From IMG/VR virus record IMGVR_UViG_3300028800_001532: DNA of 32,290 bases; one strand, 5' to 3'. A model generated the notes under the pieces. It did no database searches. It was given only the letters and a program-made list of their open reading frames with translations, and was not told where the DNA came from. Numbering within the stretch: the first letter of the stretch is position 1; each line of letters begins with the position of its first letter. Of the stretch, positions 26 to 12,268 are shown piece after piece. The position numbers and the translations under genes are program-made. This DNA is from a virus.

Positions 26-298
26 TCAAGAGAGGCTCACGTTGGTTCGGTCGGGTTCCGTGTGGGAGGCGGCGCGGTGCTGCGCGATGGTGGCCTTGAG
101 GCGGACGACGGTCCAGTACGTGTACCGACCGTCGTAGGGGCTGGGCGACAGCTCCTGCATCTCTTCGTCGCAGTAGGGCGCGGGAGCGTGCTGGCAGCCA
201 GCGGGGCAACCCTTGTGGACCAGGGCGCGGCAGTCCTCGCACACGCACGAGCAAGGAGTGACATCGAAGCCCGGTCCCGATGTGGGGAGGTCCTTCAT
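26..298 (-). CDS. small Cys-rich hypothetical protein (about 90 aa). The start overlaps the upstream stop (ATGA).
   Basis: This is the C-terminal part of track ORF 26..763. GC3 in this frame is very high (about 85%). The start ATG at 296-298 overlaps the stop of ORF 295..861. The sequence carries paired CxxC-like cysteines. Confidence 0.45.
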   Translation of the reverse strand: MKDLPTSGPGFDVTPCSCVCEDCRALVHKGCPAGCQHAPAPYCDEEMQELSPSPYDGRYTYWTVVRLKATIAQHRAASHTEPDRTNVSLS

Positions 299-861
299 GC
301 GGCGGCTTTCTTGGCCTTGCGCTGTTCGGTCTTGCGTTCGGCTTCCAGCTTCTTGCTCGTCGCACGGACGCGGGCCTTGTGCTTCGCCTTGTTGGCTTTC
401 TTGCGGGTCTTCGGCATGGGAAGGGCGCTCCTTACCCCCTTTTCGGGGTACTTGAACACGGGAGGCCCGAGGATGCTGTCGATGTGTTGGTCCATCGCCG
501 TGATGGGGTCGGGCATCGTCTCGATCTCTCGGATGCGCCTGAAGAGAACCTTCCAGGCGCATCCCCTCTCGTGGTGGGGCTTGATAGCGTGGCAGTGCGT
601 GCAGCGATCTTCCCAGACGCCTGCACGCAGAGTGGTCTGGCCCCATTCGCCCTGCTGGTAGATGAGCTTCAGCAAGTCCAGGCCGAGGATGGCGACGCGG
701 CCCCTCGCCATCTTGATCGCGATGTCTTCGCTGTTGCCGTGGCCTGTGGCGCCCAACACACAAACATCGGACTCGACGCGCTCGTCACCCTCGATGCGGT
801 AGACGTCTCCCGCATTCTGGACCTGCCAGTTCTCGATGAGGATGCGCTTGAAGAGGTTCAT
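295..861 (-). CDS. hypothetical protein with a lysine-rich (KAKK, histone-H1-like) C-terminal tail
   Basis: Track ORF of 188 aa. The C-terminus reads PKTRKKANKAKHKARV...RKAKKAAA, which suggests nucleic-acid binding. I recognise no catalytic motif. Confidence 0.5.
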   Translation of the reverse strand: MNLFKRILIENWQVQNAGDVYRIEGDERVESDVCVLGATGHGNSEDIAIKMARGRVAILGLDLLKLIYQQGEWGQTTLRAGVWEDRCTHCHAIKPHHERGCAWKVLFRRIREIETMPDPITAMDQHIDSILGPPVFKYPEKGVRSALPMPKTRKKANKAKHKARVRATSKKLEAERKTEQRKAKKAAA

Positions 862-867
862 CGGTCG

Positions 868-1092
868 TTACCGGGTGGGGTTGTCGAGGACGTCTCGAAG
901 GAGAGGGGAGGGACGGACCTTCACGGTCGAGTGCATGCGTGCGGCCGCGCACGAGTAGGGTCCCGGCTTCAGGTTCGAGGGGGTCGGGCATCCTTCGACC
1001 TTCCACTGGCACTCGGCCAGGAAAGGGCACGGGTTGCCGGCAGGGATGCGGCCGCGCACCAGGCCGTTCGTGTCCATGGGGTCGAGGTCCAT
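868..1092 (-). CDS. small hypothetical protein (74 aa)
   Basis: Track ORF. Its start is preceded on the minus strand by GGTGTA-N10-ATG. Confidence 0.45.
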   Translation of the reverse strand: MDLDPMDTNGLVRGRIPAGNPCPFLAECQWKVEGCPTPSNLKPGPYSCAAARMHSTVKVRPSPLLRDVLDNPTR

Positions 1093-1135
1093 GTGGAACT
1101 AGTACACCGACCGGTGTAATAATGGGAGACATGAC
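1093..1135. promoter_or_regulatory. divergent promoter region with a GGTGTA element on each strand
   Basis: On the plus strand GGTGTA lies about 1113-1118 and is followed by ataatgggagac then ATG. On the minus strand TACACC lies about 1103-1108, which reads GGTGTA-ctagttccac-ATG toward the 868..1092 gene. Confidence 0.55.
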
Positions 1136-1186
1136 GTGCCTGGACTCGGCAGAGAATCGCCCCCACAACCCCGAGCGGGGCTAACG

Positions 1187-2212
1187 ATGGCCCGAACGGC
1201 GGCTAAGAACGCGGATCCCAAGAACTACTACGGGCTGCTCGAAGTGAGCCCGCGGGCGCGTGCTTCGATCATCAACTCGGCGTACCGCACCCTGGCCAAG
1301 GAAACGCACCCGGACAGCCCTGGGGGCGATCTGGCGCGGTTCAGGGCCATCACGGCGGCATACGACGTCCTCAGCAACGCCGACAAGCGGGCCGAGTACG
1401 ACACGGGATTGCGGCCGGGGGTCGGAACCGTCATCGGAAACTACGAGGTCGAGTCGGTCATTGCTGAAGGAGGCTTCGGCACGACGTACAAGGGCCGGCA
1501 CGTCATCACGGAGGAGCCTGTGTGCATCAAGCACTGCTCCGAGGTGTCGGTCATGCACGACGCGGTCTTGATTGCCGAGGCCAAGTCGATCTGGGACATG
1601 TGCCACTATGCGCTGCCCGCGATGCGGGACATGCAGCGGCTGGAGGACAACTCGCTGGCGCTCATCATGAGCTACATCCCGGGCCCGACGCTCGAACAGG
1701 TCGTCGAGAAGGCGGGCAAGCTCGAACCCGAGGACGTGGCGTGGATCACAGACCGGATCCTCAACGTGCTGCTCTACCTGCACCACCACGGGATCGTGCA
1801 CGGGGATCTCAAGCCACAGAACGTGATCGTGCAGCCGGACCAGCACAGCCTCGTGCTGGTGGACTTCGGTCTCACGCTGGTCAAGCCGACGTCCTCGACG
1901 AAGTCCATGGGGTACACGCCGTACTTCGCGCCCCCGGAGCAGATCGACGGCAACACGCTCTTGCCGGCCTCGGACTTCTACAGCCTGGGGATGATCATGA
2001 TCTACACTCTCTCGGGCGGGGACATGAAGGCGGTCGAGAAGCTCAAGGTGCCGACGACAGCGCCCGACGCCCTGTGCAGCTTCATCAAGAGGCTGATCGT
2101 CAAGGACGTGCTTGCGCGTCCGCAGGGTGACCTCTGGGAAGAGTTCCGCGAGGTGCGCAAGAAGGCGTTCGGTCGTGACCGCAGTGGTATGAAGCCCATC
2201 GCAGGGCTGTAG
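1187..2212 (+). CDS. DnaJ J-domain fused to a Ser/Thr protein kinase
   Basis: The N-terminus reads YYGLLEV...AYRTLAKETHPDSPGG...AAYDVLSNADKRAEYD, a J domain with an HPD motif. The kinase motifs are GGFGTTYKG, CIKH, HGDLKPQN, VDFGL and FAPPE. ATG 1187 is preferred over GTG 1136 because the first 17 codons from 1136 have low GC3. Confidence 0.8.
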   Translation: MARTAAKNADPKNYYGLLEVSPRARASIINSAYRTLAKETHPDSPGGDLARFRAITAAYDVLSNADKRAEYDTGLRPGVGTVIGNYEVESVIAEGGFGTTYKGRHVITEEPVCIKHCSEVSVMHDAVLIAEAKSIWDMCHYALPAMRDMQRLEDNSLALIMSYIPGPTLEQVVEKAGKLEPEDVAWITDRILNVLLYLHHHGIVHGDLKPQNVIVQPDQHSLVLVDFGLTLVKPTSSTKSMGYTPYFAPPEQIDGNTLLPASDFYSLGMIMIYTLSGGDMKAVEKLKVPTTAPDALCSFIKRLIVKDVLARPQGDLWEEFREVRKKAFGRDRSGMKPIAGL

Positions 2213-2223
2213 AGGAGATCATC

Positions 2224-3180
2224 ATGGCAGAGACAGCCGACTTCGATCCCGGGCCCTGGCGCGGCCACGACTTCAAGGATGCGCGCAAGGCGTACGACAA
2301 GCACGCTGGCCGCAGCTACTCGGAGGCGACCACCAAGGGGGTCGTCGCCAAGGACCTCGTGCCGAACGGTCTGACGACCGACAGCGAGAACCCGCTCGTC
2401 GTCCTATGCGACGTGACGGGCTCGATGGGCGAGTGGCCGGGCGTCATCTTCTCGAAGCTGCCGTACCTCGACATCGAGGGCAAGAGCTACCTCGGGCCCA
2501 CGATGGAGACCAGCTTCGGGGCCATCGGGGATGCGCACAAGGGCGACACGTACCCTCTCCAGGTGCGGCAGTTCGACAAGGGTCAGAAGCTCAGCGACCA
2601 CCTCAAGGCCCTCGTCATCGAGGGCAAGGGTGGCAACGACCACTGCGAGTCCTACGAGCTGGCCGCGCTCTACTACGCCCGCAAGGTGCAGATGCCCGCA
2701 GCAAAGGGCAAGCCCATCATGATCTTCATCGGCGACGAGGGTCTGCACGACTACGTCACCAAGGCCATGGCGGCAGACATCCATGTGCGGCTGACCGAGG
2801 CCCGCATCGACACGCCCGATATCTTCAAGGAGCTGACGCGCAAGTTCTCGGTCTACGTGGTGCGCAAGCCCTACGGCGACTCCTACGAGCGGATCATCCA
2901 CCAGCAGTGGGAGAAGCTCATCGGCGAGGACCATGTGCTGATGCTGCCCGGTGCGGACCGTGTGGTGGACGTCATCTTCGGCATCCTCGCGCACGAGACC
3001 GGCAAGGTGGACTACTTCCGCGAGGAGCTGGAAGGCCGTCAGAAGCCCGAGCAAGTGGCGACGGTCTACAAGTCGCTCCAGACCATCCACGCGCTGCCCC
3101 CGAAGACCCCCAAGAAGAAGGGCATGAGCGTCATGCACCTGCCTGAGGGCAAGAAGACCAAGGGTCTTCTCAACAAGTAG
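2224..3180 (+). CDS. von Willebrand factor A (vWA) domain protein
   Basis: A MIDAS-like motif LVVLCDVTGSMGEW is present. The Shine-Dalgarno site GAGGAG lies 6 nt upstream. The gene starts 11 nt after the kinase stop. Confidence 0.7.
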   Translation: MAETADFDPGPWRGHDFKDARKAYDKHAGRSYSEATTKGVVAKDLVPNGLTTDSENPLVVLCDVTGSMGEWPGVIFSKLPYLDIEGKSYLGPTMETSFGAIGDAHKGDTYPLQVRQFDKGQKLSDHLKALVIEGKGGNDHCESYELAALYYARKVQMPAAKGKPIMIFIGDEGLHDYVTKAMAADIHVRLTEARIDTPDIFKELTRKFSVYVVRKPYGDSYERIIHQQWEKLIGEDHVLMLPGADRVVDVIFGILAHETGKVDYFREELEGRQKPEQVATVYKSLQTIHALPPKTPKKKGMSVMHLPEGKKTKGLLNK

Positions 3181-3198
3181 CCGACACACGGAGCCGGA

Positions 3199-4050
3199 AT
3201 GAACATCATCCCCGTTTTCTTCACCCCCAAGATGGTGGCTGACTCGGAGTCAGCTTCACCCAGTGCTGCGAAGCCCTCGAAGGTCGTTGACTCGTGGCAG
3301 CGGAAGTTCCAGATCGCGGTCATCGAACCCGAACGGGTGACCATCGAGGAGTTCGCACGGGCGCACGATCGCCAGTTCGTGTTCGACATCCTCGGGGGTA
3401 AGAGGGCCAACGGCTTCGGCAACCACTCCCAAGCGGTTGCCGAGTCGCTGCCCTACACGTCGGGTTCGATGTTGTCGGCCGCTCGCCACGTGCTCAAGCA
3501 CGGGGGCGCGGCCGCAGCTCCGTGCTCGGGGTTTCACCACGCGGAGTACAGCAGCGCGATGGGGTACTGCACCTTCAACGGCCTGATGGTCACGGCGCTG
3601 GCCTTGAAGGAAGAGGGGCTCGCCAAGCGGGTTGGCATCCTCGACCTCGACATGCACTACGGCAACGGGACGGACAACATCATCGCCGCCCGCAAGGCGC
3701 ACGAGTGGGTCCAACACTTCACGGCCGGCGCCACCTTCATGTTCGAGAACCACGTGGAGGCGTTCTTCAAGCGACTGCCCGAGGAGCTGGACAAGATGAA
3801 GGACTGTGATGTCGTGCTCTACCAGGCAGGAGCCGACCCCCACATCGACGATCCCAACGGCGGCTGGCTCACGACCGAGGAGCTTCGCCAGCGTGACGCG
3901 GTGGTGTTCGATGCCCTCAAGGCGAGCAAGGTACCGGTCGCCTGGAACCTCGCGGGTGGTTACCAGATCGAGCCGGACGGCAGCATCCCCAAGGTGCTTG
4001 AGATCCACGACAACACCATGCGAGAATGCGTCAGAGCATTCGGTCAGTGA
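3199..4050 (+). CDS. histone-deacetylase / acetylpolyamine-amidohydrolase family (arginase-deacetylase fold) protein
   Basis: GFHHAEYSSAMGYCTFNG corresponds to the catalytic HH and the GFCYVND region. LDLDMHYGNG corresponds to DIDIHHGDG with its Asp and His Zn ligands. AGADPHIDDP supplies the third Zn Asp, and LAGGY corresponds to GGGGY with the catalytic Tyr. The gene starts 18 nt after the vWA stop. Confidence 0.8.
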   Translation: MNIIPVFFTPKMVADSESASPSAAKPSKVVDSWQRKFQIAVIEPERVTIEEFARAHDRQFVFDILGGKRANGFGNHSQAVAESLPYTSGSMLSAARHVLKHGGAAAAPCSGFHHAEYSSAMGYCTFNGLMVTALALKEEGLAKRVGILDLDMHYGNGTDNIIAARKAHEWVQHFTAGATFMFENHVEAFFKRLPEELDKMKDCDVVLYQAGADPHIDDPNGGWLTTEELRQRDAVVFDALKASKVPVAWNLAGGYQIEPDGSIPKVLEIHDNTMRECVRAFGQ

Positions 4051-4075
4051 CAATCGAGCCGCGCTCGGAGGTTAG

Positions 4076-4201
4076 GGTGTCGATTCAGCTTGCGAGGTGT
4101 GGTGAATTTGCACGGCCATCGTCGGCTGAAAGAACGCCGCTCGCAGATATCGGTGGACAGTTCGAGGTGGGATCCCTCGTCGCATCGCAGGCTGAATCGA
4201 C
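4076..4201. repeat. 13-16 bp inverted repeat (GTGTCGATTCAGC ... GCTGAATCGACAC) flanking about 100 nt of non-coding sequence
   Basis: The arms at about 4076-4088 and 4189-4201 are perfect reverse complements over 13 bp. They are AT-richer than their surroundings. A TGACGTGCGCGC motif follows at about 4207-4218. Confidence 0.5.
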
Positions 4202-4233
4202 ACTCTGACGTGCGCGCAATGAGGAGGCAGACG

Positions 4234-4410
4234 ATGGCGACGGAAGCTCCTGCGGACCACAAGCCCTACAGCACGGCACCGTGCGCGAAGTGTGGAGCGT
4301 TCAAGGTGCGCTGCTCACTCGAAGACGAGTCGGACGGATGCGGTACTTACTACGACATCAAGTGCGAGTCGTGCGGTCACTCCTACAGGACGGATGGGCC
4401 GGACGCGTGA
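4234..4410 (+). CDS. small zinc-ribbon protein (58 aa)
   Basis: The Shine-Dalgarno site AGGAGG lies 7 nt upstream. The sequence carries CAKCG ... CESCG, two CxxC pairs. Confidence 0.5.
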   Translation: MATEAPADHKPYSTAPCAKCGAFKVRCSLEDESDGCGTYYDIKCESCGHSYRTDGPDA

Positions 4411-4411
4411 A

Positions 4412-4439
4412 CTAACCGGCGCGTGACGTGCGCGCGATC
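4412..4439. repeat. copy 1 of a 28-nt intergenic element, actaaccggcgcgtgacgtgcgcgcgatc
   Basis: This copy is identical to the copy at 4721-4749. It shares its 22-nt core with the copy at 16915-16936. It sits right after a stop codon and about 35 nt before the next ATG. Confidence 0.7.
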
Positions 4440-4469
4440 GGGACCAGACCAAAGCAGGAGAGCGCGACG

Positions 4470-4736
4470 ATGAGTGAGAAGTTCACAATCGAGTACATCG
4501 AGGAGTTCTCGACCAAGGCGTGTACCAACGCGCACCACTGCGCCATGCTACGACAGCTTCTCGTAGAGCGGATCGCATTGATGGCGAAGATCGACGATGT
4601 GCGCAAGGAGGCGCTTCACGAGGCGGCCAACGTCTGCCACCAGCGGGCCAAGTCGTTCGCGAGCGTAGACATGGTGAAGACGTCCACATGCGACGCTGAC
4701 CGAGACGCGATTCTCGGTCTACTAACCGGCGCGTGA
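4470..4736 (+). CDS. small hypothetical protein (88 aa)
   Basis: The Shine-Dalgarno site GGAGAG lies upstream of ATG 4470. Its stop codon lies inside copy 2 of the repeat. Confidence 0.5.
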   Translation: MSEKFTIEYIEEFSTKACTNAHHCAMLRQLLVERIALMAKIDDVRKEALHEAANVCHQRAKSFASVDMVKTSTCDADRDAILGLLTGA

Positions 4737-4749
4737 CGTGCGCGCGATC
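4721..4749. repeat. copy 2 of the 28-nt intergenic element
   Basis: This copy is identical to the one at 4412-4439. It overlaps the stop codon of the 4470..4736 gene. Confidence 0.7.
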
Positions 4750-4779
4750 AAGAGCGGATCGACGGAGACGAGAGGAACG

Positions 4780-5103
4780 ATGACGAAGAAGCTCACGGCA
4801 ACTCAGCTCAAGGCACTCTCGGTGCTGGCCGATGGCAAGGAGCGACAGGTGTACGAGTGCGGGTCAACGAACACGGTGGAGTCGCTGGAGGCTCGCGACC
4901 TGATCGATTGGCGGCCGAGCGAACGCAAGCACTTTGGATCGTCGCCCGGCTACGCCCTCGTGAAGATCACCGAGGCGGGCCTCGTCGAACTGCGACGCGT
5001 GCCATGCACGGAGTGCGGGTACCCGCTCCTGTCGAACGGACACTTCGCCGCATGTGGTGCGCCGGCAGGTTCACTAGCTGGCGCCGTGCCGGTGCCCCAA
5101 TAA
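4780..5103 (+). CDS. small hypothetical protein (107 aa), possibly DNA-binding
   Basis: The Shine-Dalgarno site GAGAGGAA lies upstream of ATG 4780. The reading frame is in-frame with track ORF 4738..5103. Confidence 0.5.
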   Translation: MTKKLTATQLKALSVLADGKERQVYECGSTNTVESLEARDLIDWRPSERKHFGSSPGYALVKITEAGLVELRRVPCTECGYPLLSNGHFAACGAPAGSLAGAVPVPQ

Positions 5104-5255
5104 TCGTGCGCGCGATCGGAGGCAAGTAGCACATGTGGATTCCGGTCAGGTGGGTGCGAAACGAGATGTGGACGCCGAACAGCGCCGCGTTGCGGGAATG
5201 GATTCCGATCGAGTGGGAGTGGTGGGACCGCGCGTGAACAGATGGAGGTTTTCCC

Positions 5256-6203
5256 GTGGACATGATGGTAACGCTCTGGCCGAGCTTTCCGCACTTTGAC
5301 ACGTTCGTGCACCACCGTCGCATCAGTGGCATCCGCCTGAACAGCGCGATGATGAGCAACCCCGAGCTGGACAAGGAGTTGGAGAAGATCACATCTCTGC
5401 CCAAAGACAGTCGTCTACCCAGAACAGGCACGGTGCCGCTCCTCTTCGACATCAAAGGACGTCAGCCTCGCATCATCGAGGTGCTGCCTAACGACGAGAA
5501 CCTCGAACTGCGCCTCAACCATCCCATCACAGTCAAGACCCCGTGCCCTGTGTTGTTCAAGGCGGGGGAGGACAGCGCTCTGCTCGATCACCTGGAGGAG
5601 GACGGTCAGCGGCTCGTCTTCCGGGGTGGGCCCCACTACAGGGTCAAGGCGGGGGAGTCGTTGTACCTTAGGGATCCGTCGTTCCAGATCCGAGGGGACC
5701 TCTTCACGCCCGAAGAGGTCACAAAGATGCAGAAGTGCGTGAAGGCGGGCTTCAAGAGCTGGTTTCTCTCGTACGTCGAGGAGGAGCGCGACGTGGAGCT
5801 GTTCCTCGAACACGTCGGCAGGGACGCAGAGGTCTACCTCAAGATCGAGAGCATGAAGGGCCTCGACTTCGTGAACCGGTTTCCCGCGCTCCAGAAGCGG
5901 CACTCCGGCCTCTCGCTCGTGGCCGCGCGAGGAGACCTCTACGTGGAGATCGACCGCCCACACAACATCGCCAAGGCGTTGCAGCACATCATCGACCACG
6001 ACATGGGCGCAGTCGTGGCCTCACGCCTGCTACTCTCGACGTCAGAGGGACCGGTGCCCTCGTGCGCCGACTTCCTGGAGCTGCAATGGCTGTGGGAAGC
6101 TGGCTACCACCGCTACATGCTTTGCGATGAGCTGTGCCTTCGAGAGGACAAGCTCTCGTCAGCCCTTCAAGCGTTCGACGAATTCCGGAGCAGCTTGCCT
6201 TAG
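5256..6203 (+). CDS. pyruvate-kinase-like / PEP-utilising TIM-barrel (HpcH-aldolase-like) protein
   Basis: KIESMKGLDFVNRF resembles the pyruvate kinase KIENQEG motif. LVAARGDLYVEI resembles MVARGDLGVEI. Unlike pyruvate kinase, no separate nucleotide-binding or C-terminal regulatory domain is apparent. The Shine-Dalgarno site GGAGG lies 8 nt upstream. Confidence 0.55.
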   Translation: MDMMVTLWPSFPHFDTFVHHRRISGIRLNSAMMSNPELDKELEKITSLPKDSRLPRTGTVPLLFDIKGRQPRIIEVLPNDENLELRLNHPITVKTPCPVLFKAGEDSALLDHLEEDGQRLVFRGGPHYRVKAGESLYLRDPSFQIRGDLFTPEEVTKMQKCVKAGFKSWFLSYVEEERDVELFLEHVGRDAEVYLKIESMKGLDFVNRFPALQKRHSGLSLVAARGDLYVEIDRPHNIAKALQHIIDHDMGAVVASRLLLSTSEGPVPSCADFLELQWLWEAGYHRYMLCDELCLREDKLSSALQAFDEFRSSLP

Positions 6204-6395
6204 AGGTCGAGGACCGCGATGCCGAGGCTCGCGAAGTAGTCGTCGCTCTCCTGCTGCTTTCGATTGGGGGTCACATCCAAGACGGCCAGGGTGGGCTGCA
6301 CCTCTGGGGCACGGGGTTCGTTGGTGGTTGTGGGGTGATCCAACGGCTTGTCGCCGGTGGGATCGCACAGAACGTCCAGGATGATGTCGTCCATA
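6200..6395 (-). CDS. possible small acidic protein (65 aa)
   Basis: This is the C-terminal part of track ORF 6200..6535. GC3 in this frame is very high (about 85%). It diverges from the 6420 gene across only about 24 nt, so the call is uncertain. Confidence 0.3.
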
Positions 6396-6419
6396 CCCCA
6401 GACGGTGTACAAAAAGAGC

Positions 6420-6785
6420 ATGGCATCACCCGCACCCACACCGATCCCTCTGGATGAGACGATCGAAGCCGTCGTGAAGGTCTTCGCTGAGTCGGGTTTG
6501 GCCGGCAAGGCGCAGATCTGGAAGGCCCAGGACATCTCGGACTACGGTGGCATCCACTTCGTTCTTGACGCAACGCAGCCACGCGATGGGGACGAGCCGG
6601 AGCACATCGTCATGACGGTGATGAACAGCCCCGGCGGCCGCTGGAATCTGCATGGGGACGTAGCGGGAGAAGAGACTGGACGGATCATGCACCTGGAGCC
6701 GGTGCGTTCAACCAACCCCGAGGACGGGAAGGTCTTGGCCGAGAACCTCGTGGCCTGGTGGAAAGCGAAGCTCCCTGCGGTGTAG
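6420..6785 (+). CDS. hypothetical protein (121 aa)
   Basis: GGTGTA lies at about 6404-6409, with N10 before ATG 6420. The reading frame is in-frame with track ORF 6348..6785. Confidence 0.5.
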   Translation: MASPAPTPIPLDETIEAVVKVFAESGLAGKAQIWKAQDISDYGGIHFVLDATQPRDGDEPEHIVMTVMNSPGGRWNLHGDVAGEETGRIMHLEPVRSTNPEDGKVLAENLVAWWKAKLPAV

Positions 6786-6793
6786 GGAGGGGC

Positions 6794-7408
6794 ATGTTCC
6801 ACACGAAGCTGAACGGTCTCTTCCTTCGGGACGACAGTACGGTCCACGACAAGCCCCGGGACAAGACGTTCTACACATTGGCCGAGGACACCATCTTCGC
6901 CGTGCAGCAGCCCCGCAGGGCCATCGTACCCATGCAAGAGTTTCTTGGGAGCGTCGAATACATCGACGCAGCCGTACAGGAGCGCTTGTGCTGCCTTCTG
7001 GGGGCAGAGGCGGCTGCTGTTCTCGATCGCACCCCGGCTTTGATGTTCGACAATGTGGTACAGTACATGAAGATACGGTTGCGCGACGTGGGAGGTCTTG
7101 CGGCCATCGTGGGTAACCGGGCAGTCCTCGAAGCACTCGATGGCGTTTCGGACGTTCCGCTCTACCTTGCGCCCGTGCGGATGCATGCGAGCATCGCATT
7201 CGGCCTACCACTTCCGGAACACACAGGGCGTATCGTGCAGACGGACGAGAAGAGCTGGTCTCCGCTACACGTGACGAGGAGGCTGGGTCTAGTGTCTTTC
7301 GGTGTGTCGGTACCGGTTCAGATTTACGGCGTGTCCGATGTGGCGGACAAGAGCGTCCCTGAGAATCCTCGTCCAGCTCAGAGCGAAGCTCTACTCAAGA
7401 CGGCCTGA
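6794..7408 (+). CDS. hypothetical protein (204 aa)
   Basis: The Shine-Dalgarno site GGGAGGGG lies upstream of ATG 6794, which is internal to track ORF 6758..7408. Confidence 0.5.
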   Translation: MFHTKLNGLFLRDDSTVHDKPRDKTFYTLAEDTIFAVQQPRRAIVPMQEFLGSVEYIDAAVQERLCCLLGAEAAAVLDRTPALMFDNVVQYMKIRLRDVGGLAAIVGNRAVLEALDGVSDVPLYLAPVRMHASIAFGLPLPEHTGRIVQTDEKSWSPLHVTRRLGLVSFGVSVPVQIYGVSDVADKSVPENPRPAQSEALLKTA

Positions 7409-7409
7409 C

Positions 7410-7712
7410 GTGAGCCTCTTCGCCACCAACCTCCCGCTCATCCGCAAGATTGTCGAGCAGCTCTGGCGAGAGATCACACGCCAGGCGGGCGATGCCTCGA
7501 TGCTCAACATCGAGCGGGCACGCGTCGAGGTAACGATCAAGGTCATCCCCGTGCGCAAGATGCCAGAGCACTTCATCCCTCCGGCCGTGGACATCAAGTA
7601 CCTGCGAGCCAACACCGCAGCGCGCCTCTACAAGAACAAGCCGCCCAGAATGGGGGGACCCAGGGGCAAGGTCGAGACCCTCTGGAAGCGCCTCATGGGC
7701 GCTGACGACTAG
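7410..7712 (+). CDS. hypothetical protein (about 100 aa)
   Basis: A GTG start at 7410 sits immediately after the previous stop, in the frame of track ORF 7302..7712. The gene is convergent with 7709..8353. Confidence 0.4.
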   Translation: MSLFATNLPLIRKIVEQLWREITRQAGDASMLNIERARVEVTIKVIPVRKMPEHFIPPAVDIKYLRANTAARLYKNKPPRMGGPRGKVETLWKRLMGADD

Positions 7713-8353
7713 GGCTTCTTCCAGGGCTCGTAGCCGTCCACGAACTCAAGGTAGGGGTCGTGGACGTCAACGGAGCTGTATCCCGGCTTCCAGACCGTGC
7801 CTGTGTTGTTGCCCTGCGGGTCCACGTAGTGGCTGTAGCCCGTATGGAACATCCAGGTCGGGACGGGCACACGTGGGTGCTTGGAACCGAAATCGATGAA
7901 CACCCAAGCCCGGTTGTGCTCGATGACAGTTCCCTTGAGGCCCGGTTCGACATGCGTGTAGGTGGCCGCCGTTGAACCGGGAACCTGCTTGCGGTTGTAC
8001 TGGATGCCCGTCTTACGCACGTGCACTTCGCGACCGACGCTGATCTTGAAGCCATCGTCGATCCTGATGACCTCTGCCCAGCGGACCGACGCCGCATCGA
8101 TGTTCTTGTACAGGTCTGCGATGGCGGCCTCGCGTGAGTCCCCCTCACCGTAGATGGAGTTCGTGTGGTCTCGATCCTCATACTGCCCGACCGGGTAATC
8201 GTCAGCAGGGCCGATGCGAGCATCAACCAGGACCTTGTACTCCGAGACGTTCACACCTCGGACAGCTTCCTCGACCTTGATGTATTCGAGCACACGCCGA
8301 AGCGGTTTTATGTAGTCGCGCAGCTGAGCCCGAACTTGCATGAGGTCAGTCAT
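7709..8353 (-). CDS. hypothetical protein (214 aa)
   Basis: Track ORF. Its start overlaps the upstream stop by 4 nt (ATGA). Confidence 0.55.
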   Translation of the reverse strand: MTDLMQVRAQLRDYIKPLRRVLEYIKVEEAVRGVNVSEYKVLVDARIGPADDYPVGQYEDRDHTNSIYGEGDSREAAIADLYKNIDAASVRWAEVIRIDDGFKISVGREVHVRKTGIQYNRKQVPGSTAATYTHVEPGLKGTVIEHNRAWVFIDFGSKHPRVPVPTWMFHTGYSHYVDPQGNNTGTVWKPGYSSVDVHDPYLEFVDGYEPWKKP

Positions 8354-8904
8354 CGCATGGCACCCTTGCGGTAGCGAGCGTTTTCCTTGCGCAGAAGTTC
8401 GAGGTGACGCTTGGCGATGCGGTCGTCATCTGGCAACACTTCGAGGCCCTCCTTGAGGAGCTTCTGTCGGATCTCGTCACGGGACTCGCACTTGCTTTGC
8501 CGTACCTCGTTGAGGCGGCCGTCCACGAACGACACCTCGAACTCGACATCGGGGGAGCGCTCGCTCACGCGCCCACCGAAGAGATGGTCCCCCTCGAAGA
8601 CAACCGGATCGCATGCGTAGCACTGCGAGTAGCATTCGATCGTCCGGTTGATGCCGTAGCGCTTGTAGGTGGTGGTCTGAGTGGCCGCGAGTCCCGCGTC
8701 CGTGATGACGTACGCCTTTTCAATGTGTTCGTGTTCGTACCGAGCGCTTACGTAGAGCTGGCCCTCGTAGATGAAGTACGAGTCCATGTTGCACTCCAGG
8801 CTCTTGGACTGAAGCTCAACTCCCTTCTGCGGATGGCCGGCGGCGCACAGGAACTTGGCGGCCGATTGATCGTCGAGCACGAAGAAGCTGTCGAACATTC
8901 CCAT
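8350..8904 (-). CDS. hypothetical protein (184 aa)
   Basis: Track ORF. On the minus strand GGTGTA-N10-ATG precedes the start (TACACC at about 8915-8920). Confidence 0.55.
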   Translation of the reverse strand: MGMFDSFFVLDDQSAAKFLCAAGHPQKGVELQSKSLECNMDSYFIYEGQLYVSARYEHEHIEKAYVITDAGLAATQTTTYKRYGINRTIECYSQCYACDPVVFEGDHLFGGRVSERSPDVEFEVSFVDGRLNEVRQSKCESRDEIRQKLLKEGLEVLPDDDRIAKRHLELLRKENARYRKGAMR

Positions 8905-8931: not shown

Positions 8932-9159
8932 TCAGAGCGGGAAGGAACCGGCCGGCACCTTGTCGCGCTCGAACTCGGCCAGGGCTTCCTTCTGGGTGTC
9001 GGTCGGCACCAGCAACCCGCAGGCGCAGGTGTCGATCGCCAGGTCGGCGGGGATCGTGAGCTTCGTGCCCTCAGCTGAGCGGGCATAGCCCGCGAGCTGA
9101 CGTCCGGGCTTGGCGACGGGGTGGATGTTGGTTCCGTGGCAGTTGGAGCAGGTCGGCAT
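8932..9159 (-). CDS. small zinc-ribbon protein (75 aa)
   Basis: The sequence carries CSNCHG ... CACG cysteine pairs. On the minus strand GGTGTA-N11-ATG precedes the start (TACACC at about 9171-9176). Confidence 0.45.
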   Translation of the reverse strand: MPTCSNCHGTNIHPVAKPGRQLAGYARSAEGTKLTIPADLAIDTCACGLLVPTDTQKEALAEFERDKVPAGSFPL

Positions 9160-9264: not shown

Positions 9265-9933
9265 ATGATCTACCTCGGAACGACGAACAGTGACAAGGTC
9301 GCGGAGATCGCGGCGCTCCTCTCCCCGCTCCGGGTGGAGCTGAAGACGATCGCCCTCGATGTGCCCGAGACGGAGGACACCTTCGAGGGCAACGCGCGCC
9401 TGAAGGGGATCGCGTACGCGAAGCACACGGGCGGCATCACGATCTCGGAAGACTCCGGCCTCATCATCCCGGCCCTCGGGGGATTGCCCGGTCCGTGGTC
9501 GGCCCGCTTCTGCGACTGCATCCTCGATCTGGCCACCGGCAAGGTGTCTTCGGTGGCCGAGGTTCATCCTCGTGGGCGTGCCGAGATGGACGTGGTCAAC
9601 AACAACCGTGTCCTGGAGCTGCTGCGGACCAACTGGTTCACGAGAGAGGAACGCTTCAAGGCTCGTCCGGCGGCCGCGATGTTCAAGGTCGTCCTCGTTG
9701 TCGCTTCCCCGAGCGGGATCCTGTTTCAATCCTCAGGCGAGTGCCACGGGTGGATTGCAGAAGAGGCACGAGGGACCAACGGCTTCGGCTACGACTCGAT
9801 CTTCATCGGGCAGGACACGTTCGGCAAGACCTTCGCAGAGCTGGACACTCCCCGCAAGAACCAGCGGAGCCATCGCAAGCGTGTGCTCGACGAGCTGTTC
9901 ATGTGGGCTTCGCAGCATCGGGAGCTTCTATGA
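9265..9933 (+). CDS. Ham1/RdgB-family non-canonical purine NTP pyrophosphatase (ITPase)
   Basis: The N-terminus reads LGTTNSDKVAEI and the motif ISEDSGL is present, both typical of the Ham1 family. The protein has a roughly 30-aa C-terminal extension. Confidence 0.75.
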   Translation: MIYLGTTNSDKVAEIAALLSPLRVELKTIALDVPETEDTFEGNARLKGIAYAKHTGGITISEDSGLIIPALGGLPGPWSARFCDCILDLATGKVSSVAEVHPRGRAEMDVVNNNRVLELLRTNWFTREERFKARPAAAMFKVVLVVASPSGILFQSSGECHGWIAEEARGTNGFGYDSIFIGQDTFGKTFAELDTPRKNQRSHRKRVLDELFMWASQHRELL

Positions 9934-10898
9934 TCGTCATCGACGGCAACGACGGCATCGGCAAGTCCACCATCTGCAAGGAGCTGCAACAACGCGGCTA
10001 CAACGTCGTGGACCGTGGGCTGCCCACGAAGCTGACCGACAACCCGGACCTCGAACCGGACCCTGAGCGCTTCGACGATATCTACTGCATCCTCGACGCG
10101 CCCGTGGAGGTGAGCCGCGAGAGGCTTGCAGCTGCCGGCAAGGATATGAACGAGCACTGGCACACGGTGGAGACGCTCACGCACTACCGCAAGCGCTTCC
10201 AAGAGGTCTCCAGCTGGCTCGGGGTGCCGCTCATCGACTCTACGGGCACGAAAGAGCAGACCCTCGTCAAGGTGCTCAAGTATCTCGACATCAAGCCGAC
10301 AATCCGTGTCGGACTCCCGAAGGGCAGGCTCTTTGGGGTTGCCGACGAATGGCTCGGCAGGGCGGGCTACACGATCGACCCCAAGGGACGCAACTACCGC
10401 CCAAAGTGCTCGGACCCGCAGATCGAGCCGTTCATCCTCAAGCCCCGGGCCTTGCCGCAGATGGTGGCGCTCGGGCTGCTCGATGCTGCCATCACGGGCA
10501 AGGACCTCATCCAGGAGAGCATCTACTGCGGGCACCTTCATGTCGTGGCGAAGCTTCGAGAGCCGCGCGTGCGCATCTGCGTGGCAGCTAGCCCTCAGGG
10601 CACACCCAAGAGGGTGCCGGCTGTCGTCGCGACAGAGTTCCCCAACATCGCGAGCCGCTGGATGCTGGAACACGGGATCGCGCACGTCATCATCCAGACG
10701 TACGGGTCCACGGAAGCGTACGCGCCGGTGTTCGCCGACTACGTGGTGGACGTAGTGGAGACCTCGCAGACCCTCAAGGACAACGGTCTTGAGATCCTCG
10801 AAGAGGTGCTGGACAGTTCACCTGTGCTCATCACCCGCAAGAAGTCCGCTGCATCGCAACACCAGTTCACGCGAAGGATGTGGGAGACGGCGAAATGA
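9930..10898 (+). CDS. fusion protein with an N-terminal P-loop (nucleoside or nucleotide) kinase domain and a C-terminal ATP phosphoribosyltransferase (HisG short form) domain
   Basis: The P-loop reads MIVIDGNDGIGKST. The C-terminal half matches HisG in IRVGLPKGRL, LDAAITGKDL, and VVATEFPNI...YVVDVVETSQTLKDNGL. The start overlaps the Ham1 stop (ATGA). Track ORF 9495..10898 merely extends the frame upstream through the Ham1 gene. Confidence 0.7.
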   Translation: MIVIDGNDGIGKSTICKELQQRGYNVVDRGLPTKLTDNPDLEPDPERFDDIYCILDAPVEVSRERLAAAGKDMNEHWHTVETLTHYRKRFQEVSSWLGVPLIDSTGTKEQTLVKVLKYLDIKPTIRVGLPKGRLFGVADEWLGRAGYTIDPKGRNYRPKCSDPQIEPFILKPRALPQMVALGLLDAAITGKDLIQESIYCGHLHVVAKLREPRVRICVAASPQGTPKRVPAVVATEFPNIASRWMLEHGIAHVIIQTYGSTEAYAPVFADYVVDVVETSQTLKDNGLEILEEVLDSSPVLITRKKSAASQHQFTRRMWETAK

Positions 10899-11695
10899 GC
10901 CTGGACATCGACAAGCTGACCGACGCGCAGTTCGAGGCCCTTCCTCTGGTGGTCGAGGGGGAGAGCAAGATCGTGCGGGATGCCGGCAAGGGCTACGCGG
11001 TCATCAAGTTCAAGCCGACCATCTACTCCTTCACAAGCAACCGTACGGGGGTCGTGCCGGGCTCGGACGTGCTTCGCTTACGAGCAACCAAGGTTTTCGT
11101 CAGGGAGCTGCTGCGCAACGGGGTCGATCACTCGTACGAGGCCATCAACGATCGCTTCGTGCTCTCGCGCCTCATCCCCCGTCCCCCGCCGATCGAGGTG
11201 GTGGTCAAGTCGTACCACTCGGGCACGTCGAAGCACCGTTACGTGGGGATGACGGACCATTCCATCCGTCAGAGCCACCCCTTCTACGCCGGCAAGACCT
11301 TCGGTCCGGACGGTGGCTACCCTACCACCCTCGTGCGCTTCGACTGGCGCAACCCCATGTGGCACCCTGAGGACCAGAAGAAGATGCTGGCCGATGAAGT
11401 GCTCGGCGACGATCTGGCCGACTGGTACATCGACACGCACGTGGCGCGCAGGACAGCCCTCCAGACGCAGCGTATCCTCCAGGACTTCCTGGCGAATCGC
11501 GACGTCATGGTCTACGACCTGTGCCTGTTCATCACGGAGGACGGGCAGGAGGTCTTCGGCGAGATCAGCCAGGATTGCGGCCGTTTCCGGCACTTCGATC
11601 TCGGATCGCTCGACAAGGACGTCTGGCGTGCTGGGGGTTCGAGCGCAGTGGTGCTAGAGAAATGGAAGACCCTGCTCGACATCATCGAGAAGTAG
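10895..11695 (+). CDS. SAICAR synthetase (PurC)-like ATP-dependent ligase
   Basis: VVEGESKIVRD...IKFKPTIYSFTSNRTGVVPGSDVLR and PIEVVVKSYHSGTSKHR align to the PurC motifs GKAK..., FDxxG and VEVVVRNxxAGSLxKR. The start overlaps the previous stop (ATGA). Confidence 0.65.
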   Translation: MSLDIDKLTDAQFEALPLVVEGESKIVRDAGKGYAVIKFKPTIYSFTSNRTGVVPGSDVLRLRATKVFVRELLRNGVDHSYEAINDRFVLSRLIPRPPPIEVVVKSYHSGTSKHRYVGMTDHSIRQSHPFYAGKTFGPDGGYPTTLVRFDWRNPMWHPEDQKKMLADEVLGDDLADWYIDTHVARRTALQTQRILQDFLANRDVMVYDLCLFITEDGQEVFGEISQDCGRFRHFDLGSLDKDVWRAGGSSAVVLEKWKTLLDIIEK

Positions 11696-11701
11696 GAGTC
11701 C

Positions 11702-12268
11702 ATGAACTACCAAAGCAGCTTCAAGGTGCCTGCTGGCAAGGTGCCGAGCATCGTGCTCTGCAACCCTAAGAATGCCTATAATGTCTCGATGGTCCAACGC
11801 ATCGCCTCCTGCTACGGCTGGCAGCAGGTCTGGTTCACAGGCGACCGTGTGGGCCTGGACCTCGCGGGCAAGAAGCGCCTGCCCCGTGAAGAGCGGATGA
11901 AGGGCTTCAAGCAGGTCGAGATCGTCCAGTACGACCGACCCCTCGATCAGTTCAGCAAGGACGTGGTCCCTATCGCCGTCGAGGTCCGGGCGAACTCGGA
12001 GAAGCTGCACCAGTTCGAGCATCCGGACAATGCCGTCTATGTCTTCGGTCCCGAGGACGGGTCCATCCCCGAGGGGGTGCTGACGCACTGCCATCGGTTC
12101 CTCGTCATTCCGGTGAGGTTCTGCCTGAACCTCGCGACAGCGGTGTCCACGATCCTCTGGGACCGGGCGTACAAGCGGGGCGAGGTCCACGAGATGGAGG
12201 ACGCCAAGGCGTACGCCGAGACCGACACGAAGGCCATGGGGATCTACGACGAGCTGAGGCAGTCGTGA
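11702..12268 (+). CDS. SpoU/TrmH-family (SPOUT) RNA 2-prime-O-methyltransferase
   Basis: IVLCNPKNAYNVSMVQR, VYVFGPEDGSIPEGVL and LVIPVRFCLNLATAVSTIL match the three SPOUT motifs. Confidence 0.75.
   Translation: MNYQSSFKVPAGKVPSIVLCNPKNAYNVSMVQRIASCYGWQQVWFTGDRVGLDLAGKKRLPREERMKGFKQVEIVQYDRPLDQFSKDVVPIAVEVRANSEKLHQFEHPDNAVYVFGPEDGSIPEGVLTHCHRFLVIPVRFCLNLATAVSTILWDRAYKRGEVHEMEDAKAYAETDTKAMGIYDELRQS

Follow-up and report, generated by a model that had tools for sequence, protein, structure and literature searches.

The DNA analysed here, referred to below as the window, is a 32,290-nucleotide (nt) stretch of the IMG/VR virus record IMGVR_UViG_3300028800_001532. It comes from a huge phage, the source contig of which is 218,019 bp long. 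The window encodes a fusion of a J-domain to a Ser/Thr protein kinase (J-kinase), a protein with a von Willebrand factor A (vWA) fold and a truncated pyruvate kinase (PK), three genes that recur in this order across phages. Here a histone deacetylase (HDAC)-like gene and three small open reading frames (ORFs) lie between the vWA and PK genes. The features of the region, in window coordinates, are as follows.

1187-2212, plus strand: J-domain-Ser/Thr kinase fusion, 341 amino acids (aa), first gene of the cassette, assigned from Pfam DnaJ and Pkinase, an AlphaFold2 model and Foldseek
1223-1402, plus strand: J-domain of the fusion (residues 13-72), with the HPD motif at nt 1307-1315 (residues 41-43)
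1442-2122, plus strand: Hanks-type kinase domain of the fusion, with the glycine-rich loop (G-loop) AEGGFG at 1463-1480, VCIK with Lys115 at 1520-1531, HGDLKPQN at 1799-1822, DFG at 1862-1870 and APPE at 1928-1939
2224-3180, plus strand: vWA-fold protein with a site resembling the metal ion-dependent adhesion site (MIDAS), second gene of the cassette, with DVTGS at nt 2410-2424 and GDE within 2728-2742
3199-4050, plus strand: class IV (HDAC11-like) zinc-dependent deacylase, 283 aa, Pfam Hist_deacetyl at 1.6e-29, read as lineage-specific cargo
4234-5103, plus strand: three small ORFs, read as variable cargo, that separate the HDAC gene from the PK-like gene; gene calling on the source contig gives them 58, 88 and 107 aa
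5256-6203, plus strand: truncated pyruvate kinase (A domain with a short B domain; C domain absent), third gene of the cassette, with IRLNS at 5334-5348, DIKGRQPR at 5448-5471, KIE at 5841-5849 and ARGD at 5925-5936

An earlier reading of the region, made from the sequence only, had described positions 1187-4050 as a three-gene operon of J-kinase, vWA and HDAC. The ORF list bears out its gene structure on the plus strand, with ORFs at 1187-2212 (341 aa from ATG), 2224-3180 (318 aa) and 3199-4050 (283 aa) and gaps of 11 nt between kinase and vWA and 18 nt between vWA and HDAC, and all three genes were recovered by independent gene calling on the 218-kb source contig. The J-kinase ORF could be extended upstream to a GTG at 1136. 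Shine-Dalgarno sequences precede the vWA start (AGGAGA) and the HDAC start (GGAG), and no plus-strand terminator-like site was found between the three genes in a promoter and terminator scan that did no better than on shuffled sequence. The short gaps, the Shine-Dalgarno sites and the lack of an intervening terminator point to co-transcription of the kinase, vWA and HDAC genes. Every gene from 1187 to ~7712 is on the plus strand, and two divergently transcribed genes lie upstream.

The fusion of an intact J-domain to a kinase was upheld. Pfam DnaJ matched over its full profile with 58 bits (E=1e-15; cut-off 27.8 bits), Pkinase matched at E=2.4e-33, and the HPD motif, at residues 41-43, is invariant in alignments of the close J-kinase family. 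An AlphaFold2 model of the protein reached a pLDDT (predicted local distance difference test) score of 82.2, with a helical J-domain at 86-96 and a disordered activation segment (residues 233-258). The best whole-chain PDB folds for this model were the DNAJB1-PKAc chimera (4wb7/8fe2; E ~2e-16, ~380 columns), followed by PknB/Stk1. The kinase had been called fully motif-complete, which is true of K115 (in VCIK), E131, D207 and N212 (in HGDLKPQN), DFG (226-228) and APPE, but not of the HRD motif or the G-loop: HRD is replaced by HGD, a change that is invariant in the family alignment and makes this a non-RD kinase, and in AEGGFG the first glycine position is Ala. The fusion had also been considered unusual, but it is not rare, since both DnaJ and Pkinase were found in 120 of the 120 best homologs, which are 327-353 aa long. 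In the clade of the window, the kinase catalytic residues are invariant, and the motifs of the J-domain and the kinase are both intact. The protein ends in a short, conserved tail, FGRxRSGMKxIPG[FL] (2170-2209), which is modelled with low confidence or as disordered and is a candidate docking or phosphorylation motif.

Assignment of the second gene depended on structure prediction. The vWA protein had no Pfam match, a 22-sequence family profile found nothing in the PDB, and PHROG places it in a function-unknown family (PHROG 2971). The AlphaFold2 model, built with 34 homologs, had a pLDDT of 86.9 and a predicted template modelling score of 0.86. Foldseek aligned this model with the vWA domains of integrin beta-I, SpaC and NorD (E ~3e-7, probability 1.0, ~255 columns) and, in BFVD, with viral VWFA proteins (probability 1.0). 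The vWA fold claimed for the 2224-3180 product is thus confirmed by the predicted structure, although profile searches lend it no support, and the MIDAS site is only putative. DVTGS (63-67), a DxTxS variant, and GDE (170-172), which supplies D171, are invariant across the family alignments; the middle ligand is a putative one (E142 or S143). Both ends of the protein carry conserved, disordered tails that are candidate docking or phosphorylation motifs: M[AS]E[ST]xD[YF]xPGxW at the N-terminus (2224-2280) and GKSVM...GKKTKxLL at the C-terminus (3120-3177). In Mycobacterium phage Sauce and ~20 other cluster C phages, the match to the vWA protein is limited to residues 29-157, and the best structural match to the model in BFVD is a 595-aa Sauce protein. 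The vWA gene may be rearranged or fused in this subgroup.

The PK-like gene at 5256-6203 is a conserved third partner that the sequence-only reading, ending at 4050, had missed. A profile of its family retrieved only pyruvate kinases from the PDB (85 sequences, best 4e-11), and Pfam PK was matched by 17 of 19 family members. With hhalign, the match to E. coli PykF had a probability of 95.9% and covered the C-terminal half only; the N-terminal motifs were mapped through a MAFFT alignment to PykF, for which the reference sequence is identical to 4yng_A. In this alignment, the ~310-aa phage protein is colinear with PykF 1-335. PykF residues R32, N34, D66, K68, R73, K220, E222 and R244-G-D246 are conserved, T278 is present as Ser, and the catalytic and ligand-binding residues are invariant across the PK-like family. 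Two positions of the K+ site are changed (S36A and T67I). Like canonical PykF (4yng/1pky), the protein has the A-domain TIM barrel, the B-domain insertion at the same place and the catalytic residues, but PykF is 470 aa long, and the phage protein ends near PykF residue 335, has a shortened B domain and lacks the C-terminal domain responsible for allosteric regulation and tetramerisation. An exhaustive phmmer search against 1.84 billion cluster representatives yielded no more than 252 relatives, almost all fragments or of ~300-390 aa, so that the phage PK belongs to a small family of its own rather than being a shortened host copy. A single-sequence search does not link this family to canonical PKs. 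In many of the relatives (P0361-P0386), 340-480 aa long, the match is split in two, suggesting that the barrel has insertions in some lineages.

The conservation of these three genes was assessed in 73 loci anchored on the vWA gene, comprising 23 loci from IMG/VR (with a flank of ±8 kb) and 50 loci on contigs of metagenome-assembled genomes (MAGs) in GTDB. These include near-duplicates (L004 and L005, L009 and L022, L011 and L012, and L018, which is the same as GenBank LR745208), so that the independent lineages are fewer than the raw counts. The kinase gene is adjacent to the vWA gene in 67 of the 73 loci (23/23 in IMG/VR and 44/50 in GTDB), and the pairing of the two that had been proposed is therefore conserved; at least two of the six GTDB loci without an adjacent kinase are cut by a contig end. 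The PK-like gene follows the vWA gene in 71 of the 73 (21/23 and 50/50), and both of the IMG/VR loci without it have a broken vWA gene. The order kinase, vWA, PK is retained down to 28-40% identity, and the three genes are contiguous in the megaphage LR745208. When all ~48 genes of the window were used as queries against the 23 IMG/VR loci, only the kinase, vWA and PK-like genes recurred, with the exception of a weak match to the gene at 28207-29427 in two loci. Beyond the huge phages, a homologous pair of kinase and vWA genes is found in ~200 cluster C mycobacteriophages, for example gp249 and gp250 of Catera. Tandem paralogous vWA genes are present in two loci (L086, 1066-7704, and L097, 6001-10168), the first of which also has two PK-like genes, suggesting that the vWA gene, in L086 together with PK, can be duplicated within the locus.

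Homologs are carried by viral contigs in IMG/VR and by metagenome contigs 200-760 kb in length. A nucleotide-level search (megablast) of GenBank phages with the region gave no match. The best GenBank match is the 485-kb "uncultured phage" LR745208. All 50 nominally cellular carriers (L049-L098) are MAG or single-cell contigs, most of them labelled as Candidate Phyla Radiation (CPR) bacteria or DPANN archaea and many from 0.1-um filter fractions. A cellular origin of the cassette in CPR or DPANN was rejected on this ground, the contigs being most plausibly mis-binned phage. For example, one of these loci (L085) is 41777-54709 of CP010425.1, "Archaeon GW2011_AR15 chromosome", a record presented as a closed chromosome.

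Both junctions of the cassette hold unrelated ORFs in other phages, among them a 443-aa protein, membrane proteins and a possible homing endonuclease, and the junctions can therefore be regarded as cargo slots. The small ORFs around the HDAC gene have no Pfam domains and no homologs in related loci. Our preferred interpretation, to which we assign a probability of roughly 60%, is that the functional unit at this locus is a conserved kinase-vWA-PK cassette for host takeover and that the HDAC gene and the three small ORFs are cargo in the vWA-PK junction. Another account would have the three as unrelated early or auxiliary genes with no functional coupling, their order merely inherited by descent. 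The cassette is indeed known from synteny only, insertions are tolerated at both junctions, and partners have been lost in some lineages. However, this account sits poorly with an order and adjacency that outlast the replacement of the flanking genes, with the recurrence of essentially these three genes out of the whole window, and with the joint duplication of paralogous vWA and PK pairs in L086. Among the alternatives weighed here, we consider it the least likely.

Several observations weigh against a kinase-vWA-PK takeover cassette. Conserved synteny is the only evidence that couples the three genes, and many of the loci are redundant or MAG-derived. The kinase gene is divergently oriented in 3 of the 44 MAG loci that have it beside the vWA gene, and the PK-like gene is absent from the cluster C mycobacteriophages. 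About ten full-length kinases keep the J fold without HPD, and three have no J-domain. Conversely, the most distant members (L093, L095, L096 and L098) and Catera gp249 keep HPD, while their catalytic loops read HGN, HEN, HGS or HGA and DFG is altered. Because of this mosaic decay in the kinase family, neither DnaK stimulation nor phosphotransfer appears to be universally required. Finally, the subclade of the window has the HDAC gene near the cassette in four of nine genomes, and some functional link between them is possible.

The same pattern of decay bears on another explanation, in which the locus would serve in folding or assembling phage proteins or virions: DnaK is brought in by the J-domain, the vWA protein acts as a co-chaperone, the kinase fold is mainly a scaffold, and the PK-like gene is an auxiliary metabolic gene retained nearby. 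Retention of HPD in the most divergent members with dead kinase loops, Catera gp249 included, speaks for this; vWA co-chaperones are known, and jumbo-phage DnaJ and MoxR-vWA pairs have been proposed as assembly aids (PMC7824862). In the clade of the window, however, it is the kinase catalytic residues that are invariant, while several members of the family have lost HPD or the J-domain. No structural or assembly genes are linked to the cassette, and PK follows vWA even more consistently than the kinase precedes it. We give the chaperone explanation a low probability.

In the cluster C (Bixzunavirus) mycobacteriophage Catera, gp249 has ~25% identity to the J-kinase, with HPD kept, gp250 has ~32% identity to the vWA protein, and the two are adjacent in the same order. 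Unlike the J-kinase of the window, gp249 has an HGA loop and no VAIK lysine, and is likely a pseudokinase; gp250 is annotated as hypothetical, and no PK-like gene accompanies them. The VAIK lysine is retained in L093-L098. Judging from these substitutions, the "serine/threonine kinase" annotation carried by ~200 mycobacteriophage genomes may describe a pseudokinase (Catera gp249 is L002 3908-4981).

The HDAC-like gene, which had been taken as the integral third member of the unit, behaves differently. It was found in none of the 73 vWA-anchored loci (0/23 in IMG/VR and 0/50 in GTDB), and conversely none of the cassette genes was found in 14 HDAC-anchored IMG/VR loci, within the flanks available. 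Rhodococcus phage E3 has an HDAC gene with no kinase or vWA gene nearby. Proximity of the HDAC gene to the cassette is confined to the window and three close lineages, which between them show three arrangements. The gene orders in the relevant genomes, with identities to the window proteins, are given below.

Window: kinase, vWA, HDAC, three small ORFs, PK
L099 (vWA 66%): kinase, vWA, HDAC, PK
L029/L030 (vWA 71%): kinase, vWA, three small ORFs, HDAC, three small ORFs, PK
L104 (HDAC 73%): HDAC, ~850 bp, kinase, small ORF, vWA, PK
L100, L101, L102 and L031 (vWA 59-68%): kinase, vWA, (small ORFs), PK; HDAC not nearby
483,777-bp phage (L031 and L033): HDAC ~80 kb from the cassette
L103 (closest HDAC homolog, 74-75%): syntenic with both flanks of the window; HDAC in the position it has in the window; none of kinase, vWA and PK within 6 kb

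The synteny of L103 with the window is based on homologs of the window genes at 295-861, 868-1092, 6348-6785, 7302-7712, 8350-8904 and 8932-9159. Co-occurrence outside this genome was thus found, the HDAC gene lying near the cassette in three nearby lineages, but as a linkage this is shallow, and it varies. In its subclade, HDAC is a passenger, linked regionally yet separable.

These data can be set against the proposal that the J-kinase, the vWA protein and the HDAC form one system, in which deacylation would be linked mechanistically with phosphorylation and with the recruitment of Hsp70, for instance in host takeover or anti-defence. The tight packing of the three genes on one strand, with Shine-Dalgarno sites and no terminator between them, speaks for such a system. 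It is also true that no more than about 1 kb separates HDAC from the cassette in the window, L099, L029/L030 and L104, and that the two frequently share genomes. Against this stand the reciprocal absence of each from the loci of the other, the three different positions of HDAC, its separation from the cassette by 80 kb in the 484-kb phage, its presence in L103 at the syntenic spot without the cassette, and its occurrence in phage E3 with neither kinase nor vWA nearby. We therefore regard a J-kinase-vWA-HDAC system as improbable, though the strongest of the alternatives, and the tempting signalling link from HDAC to the kinase and vWA proteins has to be corrected as unsupported. The HDAC-like enzyme most likely acts on a substrate of its own, independently of the cassette.

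As to what this enzyme is, its profile match is significant, as is that of the J-domain, and the zinc ligands, His-His pair and Tyr picked out from the sequence are conserved as claimed. The catalytic set H113-H114, D149/D151/H153, D213 and G253-G254-Y255 is invariant or at least 90% conserved among 26 phage homologs and aligns with that of solved class IV enzymes, with D151, H153 and D213 as zinc ligands; from these residues, the enzyme looks catalytically competent. The best PDB relatives were 9RJE (chrHDAC11-1/A, 3e-21) and Vibrio cholerae HdaH (9GKV, 1e-15), with acetylpolyamine amidohydrolases (APAHs) at ~1e-9 and partial coverage. Class IV HDACs (9RJE; V. cholerae HdaH 9GKV/9GKY) share with it the GFHH, DxDxH, GADPH and GGY motifs and a small single domain, but the phage enzyme, at 283 aa, is shorter still and is phage-encoded. 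Its active-site motif is SGFHH, compared with the GGGFHH and SGGYHH described in PMC11532494. The family is large, consisting of ~283-aa proteins with 64-75% identity that often share huge contigs with the cassette.

The sequence-only reading had labelled the protein a lysine or polyamine deacetylase, which is too specific, as the closest relatives of solved structure belong to class IV and have substrates that are unknown or long-chain acyl groups. The 9RJE protein comes from a clade proposed to use unidentified non-peptide substrates, and V. cholerae HdaH (9GKV) is a weak de-decanoylase. APAH is a polyamine-specific dimeric enzyme of ~340-350 aa, and the viral APAHs characterised so far are from giant eukaryotic viruses and more distantly related to the phage enzyme (PMC9992855). 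Identity as a polyamine deacetylase was set aside as less likely because the class IV enzymes are closer (3e-21 and 1e-15 against ~1e-9), and "deacylase", with no substrate specified, is the safer label. The HDAC gene of L104 has beside it (217-5468) a further stand-alone gene for a Pkinase, together with two NUDIX genes and one for NAMPT/NAPRTase, genes of NAD salvage.

The closest published system to the cassette is the TerY-P triad, in which a TerY-like vWA protein is combined with a PP2C phosphatase and a Ser/Thr kinase bearing a Zn-ribbon or OB fold (Anantharaman et al. 2012, summarised in PMC11090510). Common to both are a stand-alone MIDAS vWA protein encoded beside a Hanks-type kinase and the proposed logic of a switch dependent on metal or phosphorylation. 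However, the phage kinase is fused to an N-terminal J-domain and ends in a short conserved tail, the third partner is a truncated pyruvate kinase, the phage vWA protein is matched by no PADLOC or Pfam model, and the cassette is phage-encoded and behaves as a core gene set. Among Pfam-annotated genes, no PP2C was found within ~8-13 kb on either side of the cassette on the source contig, nor in the related loci inspected. Identity with the TerY-P triad was rejected on account of the missing PP2C and the different kinase fusion.

In the MoxR-vWA ternary systems, a MoxR AAA+ ATPase or a GTPase forms a core together with effectors (Kaur et al. 2020, PMC7159879). Together with the actinobacterial kinase-PP2C-vWA theme described in the same work, these resemble the cassette in having vWA adaptors with kinases, and Hsp70 and DnaJ components also occur in some of them. 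Neither the window nor any locus inspected has an AAA+ or GTPase gene next to the vWA gene, and a MoxR-vWA ternary system was rejected since no ATPase is present. The label of ternary signalling or conflict system given from the sequence thus falls away, as there is neither MoxR nor PP2C, and the vWA, HDAC and PK proteins have no PADLOC match. A catalogued defence system was likewise rejected, PADLOC giving generic kinase matches only.

A related explanation is that the phage carries a TerY-P-like or ternary vWA system for defence or superinfection exclusion, with a vWA sensor and a kinase switch that would abort infection by competitors. A vWA protein and a Ser/Thr kinase do form the core of the anti-phage TerY-P triads (PMC11090510), the kinase domain scores against PADLOC defence kinases such as PD-T4-6 and mad6, there is a weak TCAD9 match, and in one locus (L101, 7125-7409) a Tad2-like gene of the anti-Thoeris family directly follows the PK-like gene. 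However, the kinase matches amount to generic Pkinase similarity, the neighbourhood contains no PP2C, MoxR or effector gene, and the kinase has a J-domain at its N-terminus and no Zn-ribbon or OB fold at its C-terminus. A distribution of this kind, near-universal and order-conserved across a clade of huge phages as well as every cluster C mycobacteriophage, looks core-like and not like that of a patchy defence island. A defence role is in our view no likelier than the chaperone explanation.

If the kinase-vWA-PK set is indeed a takeover cassette, how might it work? We can offer only a tentative model, the full form of which we consider possible but doubtful: the J-kinase, the vWA protein and the PK without its C domain would be a single, undescribed phage machine that couples Hsp70 recruitment, Ser/Thr phosphorylation and regeneration of (d)NTPs driven by phosphoenolpyruvate (PEP) and so takes over host proteostasis or metabolism. 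The vWA protein would replace the lost regulatory domain of PK, and a reduced form of the machine would be present in all cluster C mycobacteriophages. In the preferred interpretation itself, the cassette would be expressed as one transcript during host takeover and would probably make use of host DnaK. The HPD-containing J-domain would dock host DnaK-ATP and trigger hydrolysis, bringing Hsp70 to the kinase, where it could hold or remodel the kinase targets, or DnaK might itself be the target. A non-RD kinase may be active without phosphorylation of its activation loop. The metal site of the vWA protein could bind an acidic, possibly phosphorylated partner, making it an adaptor that bridges the kinase and PK. 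Pyruvate kinases accept a broad range of NDPs. An unregulated PK could make (d)NTP from PEP and (d)NDP, and so regenerate ATP locally for the kinase or the DnaK cycle, or else rewire the host supply of energy and nucleotides.

Precedents exist for individual steps of this model. In the human DNAJB1-PKAc chimera, the J-domain recruits Hsp70 to the kinase (PMC6533061). The chimera (DNAJB1-PRKACA, J-PKAc; 4wb7/8fe2) resembles the phage protein in that an N-terminal J-domain is fused directly to the kinase core, but it arises by a somatic deletion in a eukaryote and carries an AGC kinase, whereas in the phages the fusion is natural and conserved, and its kinase is PknB-like and non-RD, at ~20% identity. 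The Rki protein of phage RB43 (PMC3486835) provides a precedent for a phage-encoded J-domain protein working through host DnaK; unlike the J-kinase, it stands alone as a small J-protein, acts by stabilising sigma-32 and has no kinase, vWA or PK partner. We found no published J-kinase/vWA/PK cassette in the literature that could be searched, and no published virus-encoded unregulated pyruvate kinase. The cassette of kinase, vWA and truncated PK is apparently undescribed.

The remainder of the window contains other genes of interest, all given in window coordinates. An 862-aa protein resembling the major vault protein is encoded at 22123-24711 on the plus strand (Pfam MVP_shoulder 5.9e-28 and Vault_3 2.2e-10). 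The gene at 28207-29427 (plus strand) encodes an ADP-ribosylglycohydrolase (1e-23), and L102 also has an ADP-ribosylglycohydrolase gene, upstream of its cassette. A homolog of elongation factor Ts is encoded at 31051-31713 on the minus strand (6e-36). Genes of nucleotide and RNA metabolism occupy 9265-12268 on the plus strand. They encode a Ham1p-like NTP pyrophosphatase, an ATP phosphoribosyltransferase of HisG type, a protein with weak similarity to SAICAR synthetase and a SpoU methylase. Catera has a gene resembling that for adenylosuccinate synthetase two genes past its vWA gene. A tRNA search of the window found none.

Huge phages carry hundreds of genes with no known role. The cassette described here is compact, its order is kept down to ~30% identity, and every part of it is an enzyme or an adaptor with an activity that can be assayed. 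As the kinase-vWA pair is present in ~200 cultivable cluster C phages of M. smegmatis, direct testing by phage engineering is possible. If the proposed role is true, these phages would have in their J-kinase a natural parallel to the oncogenic fusion of J-domain and kinase in humans.

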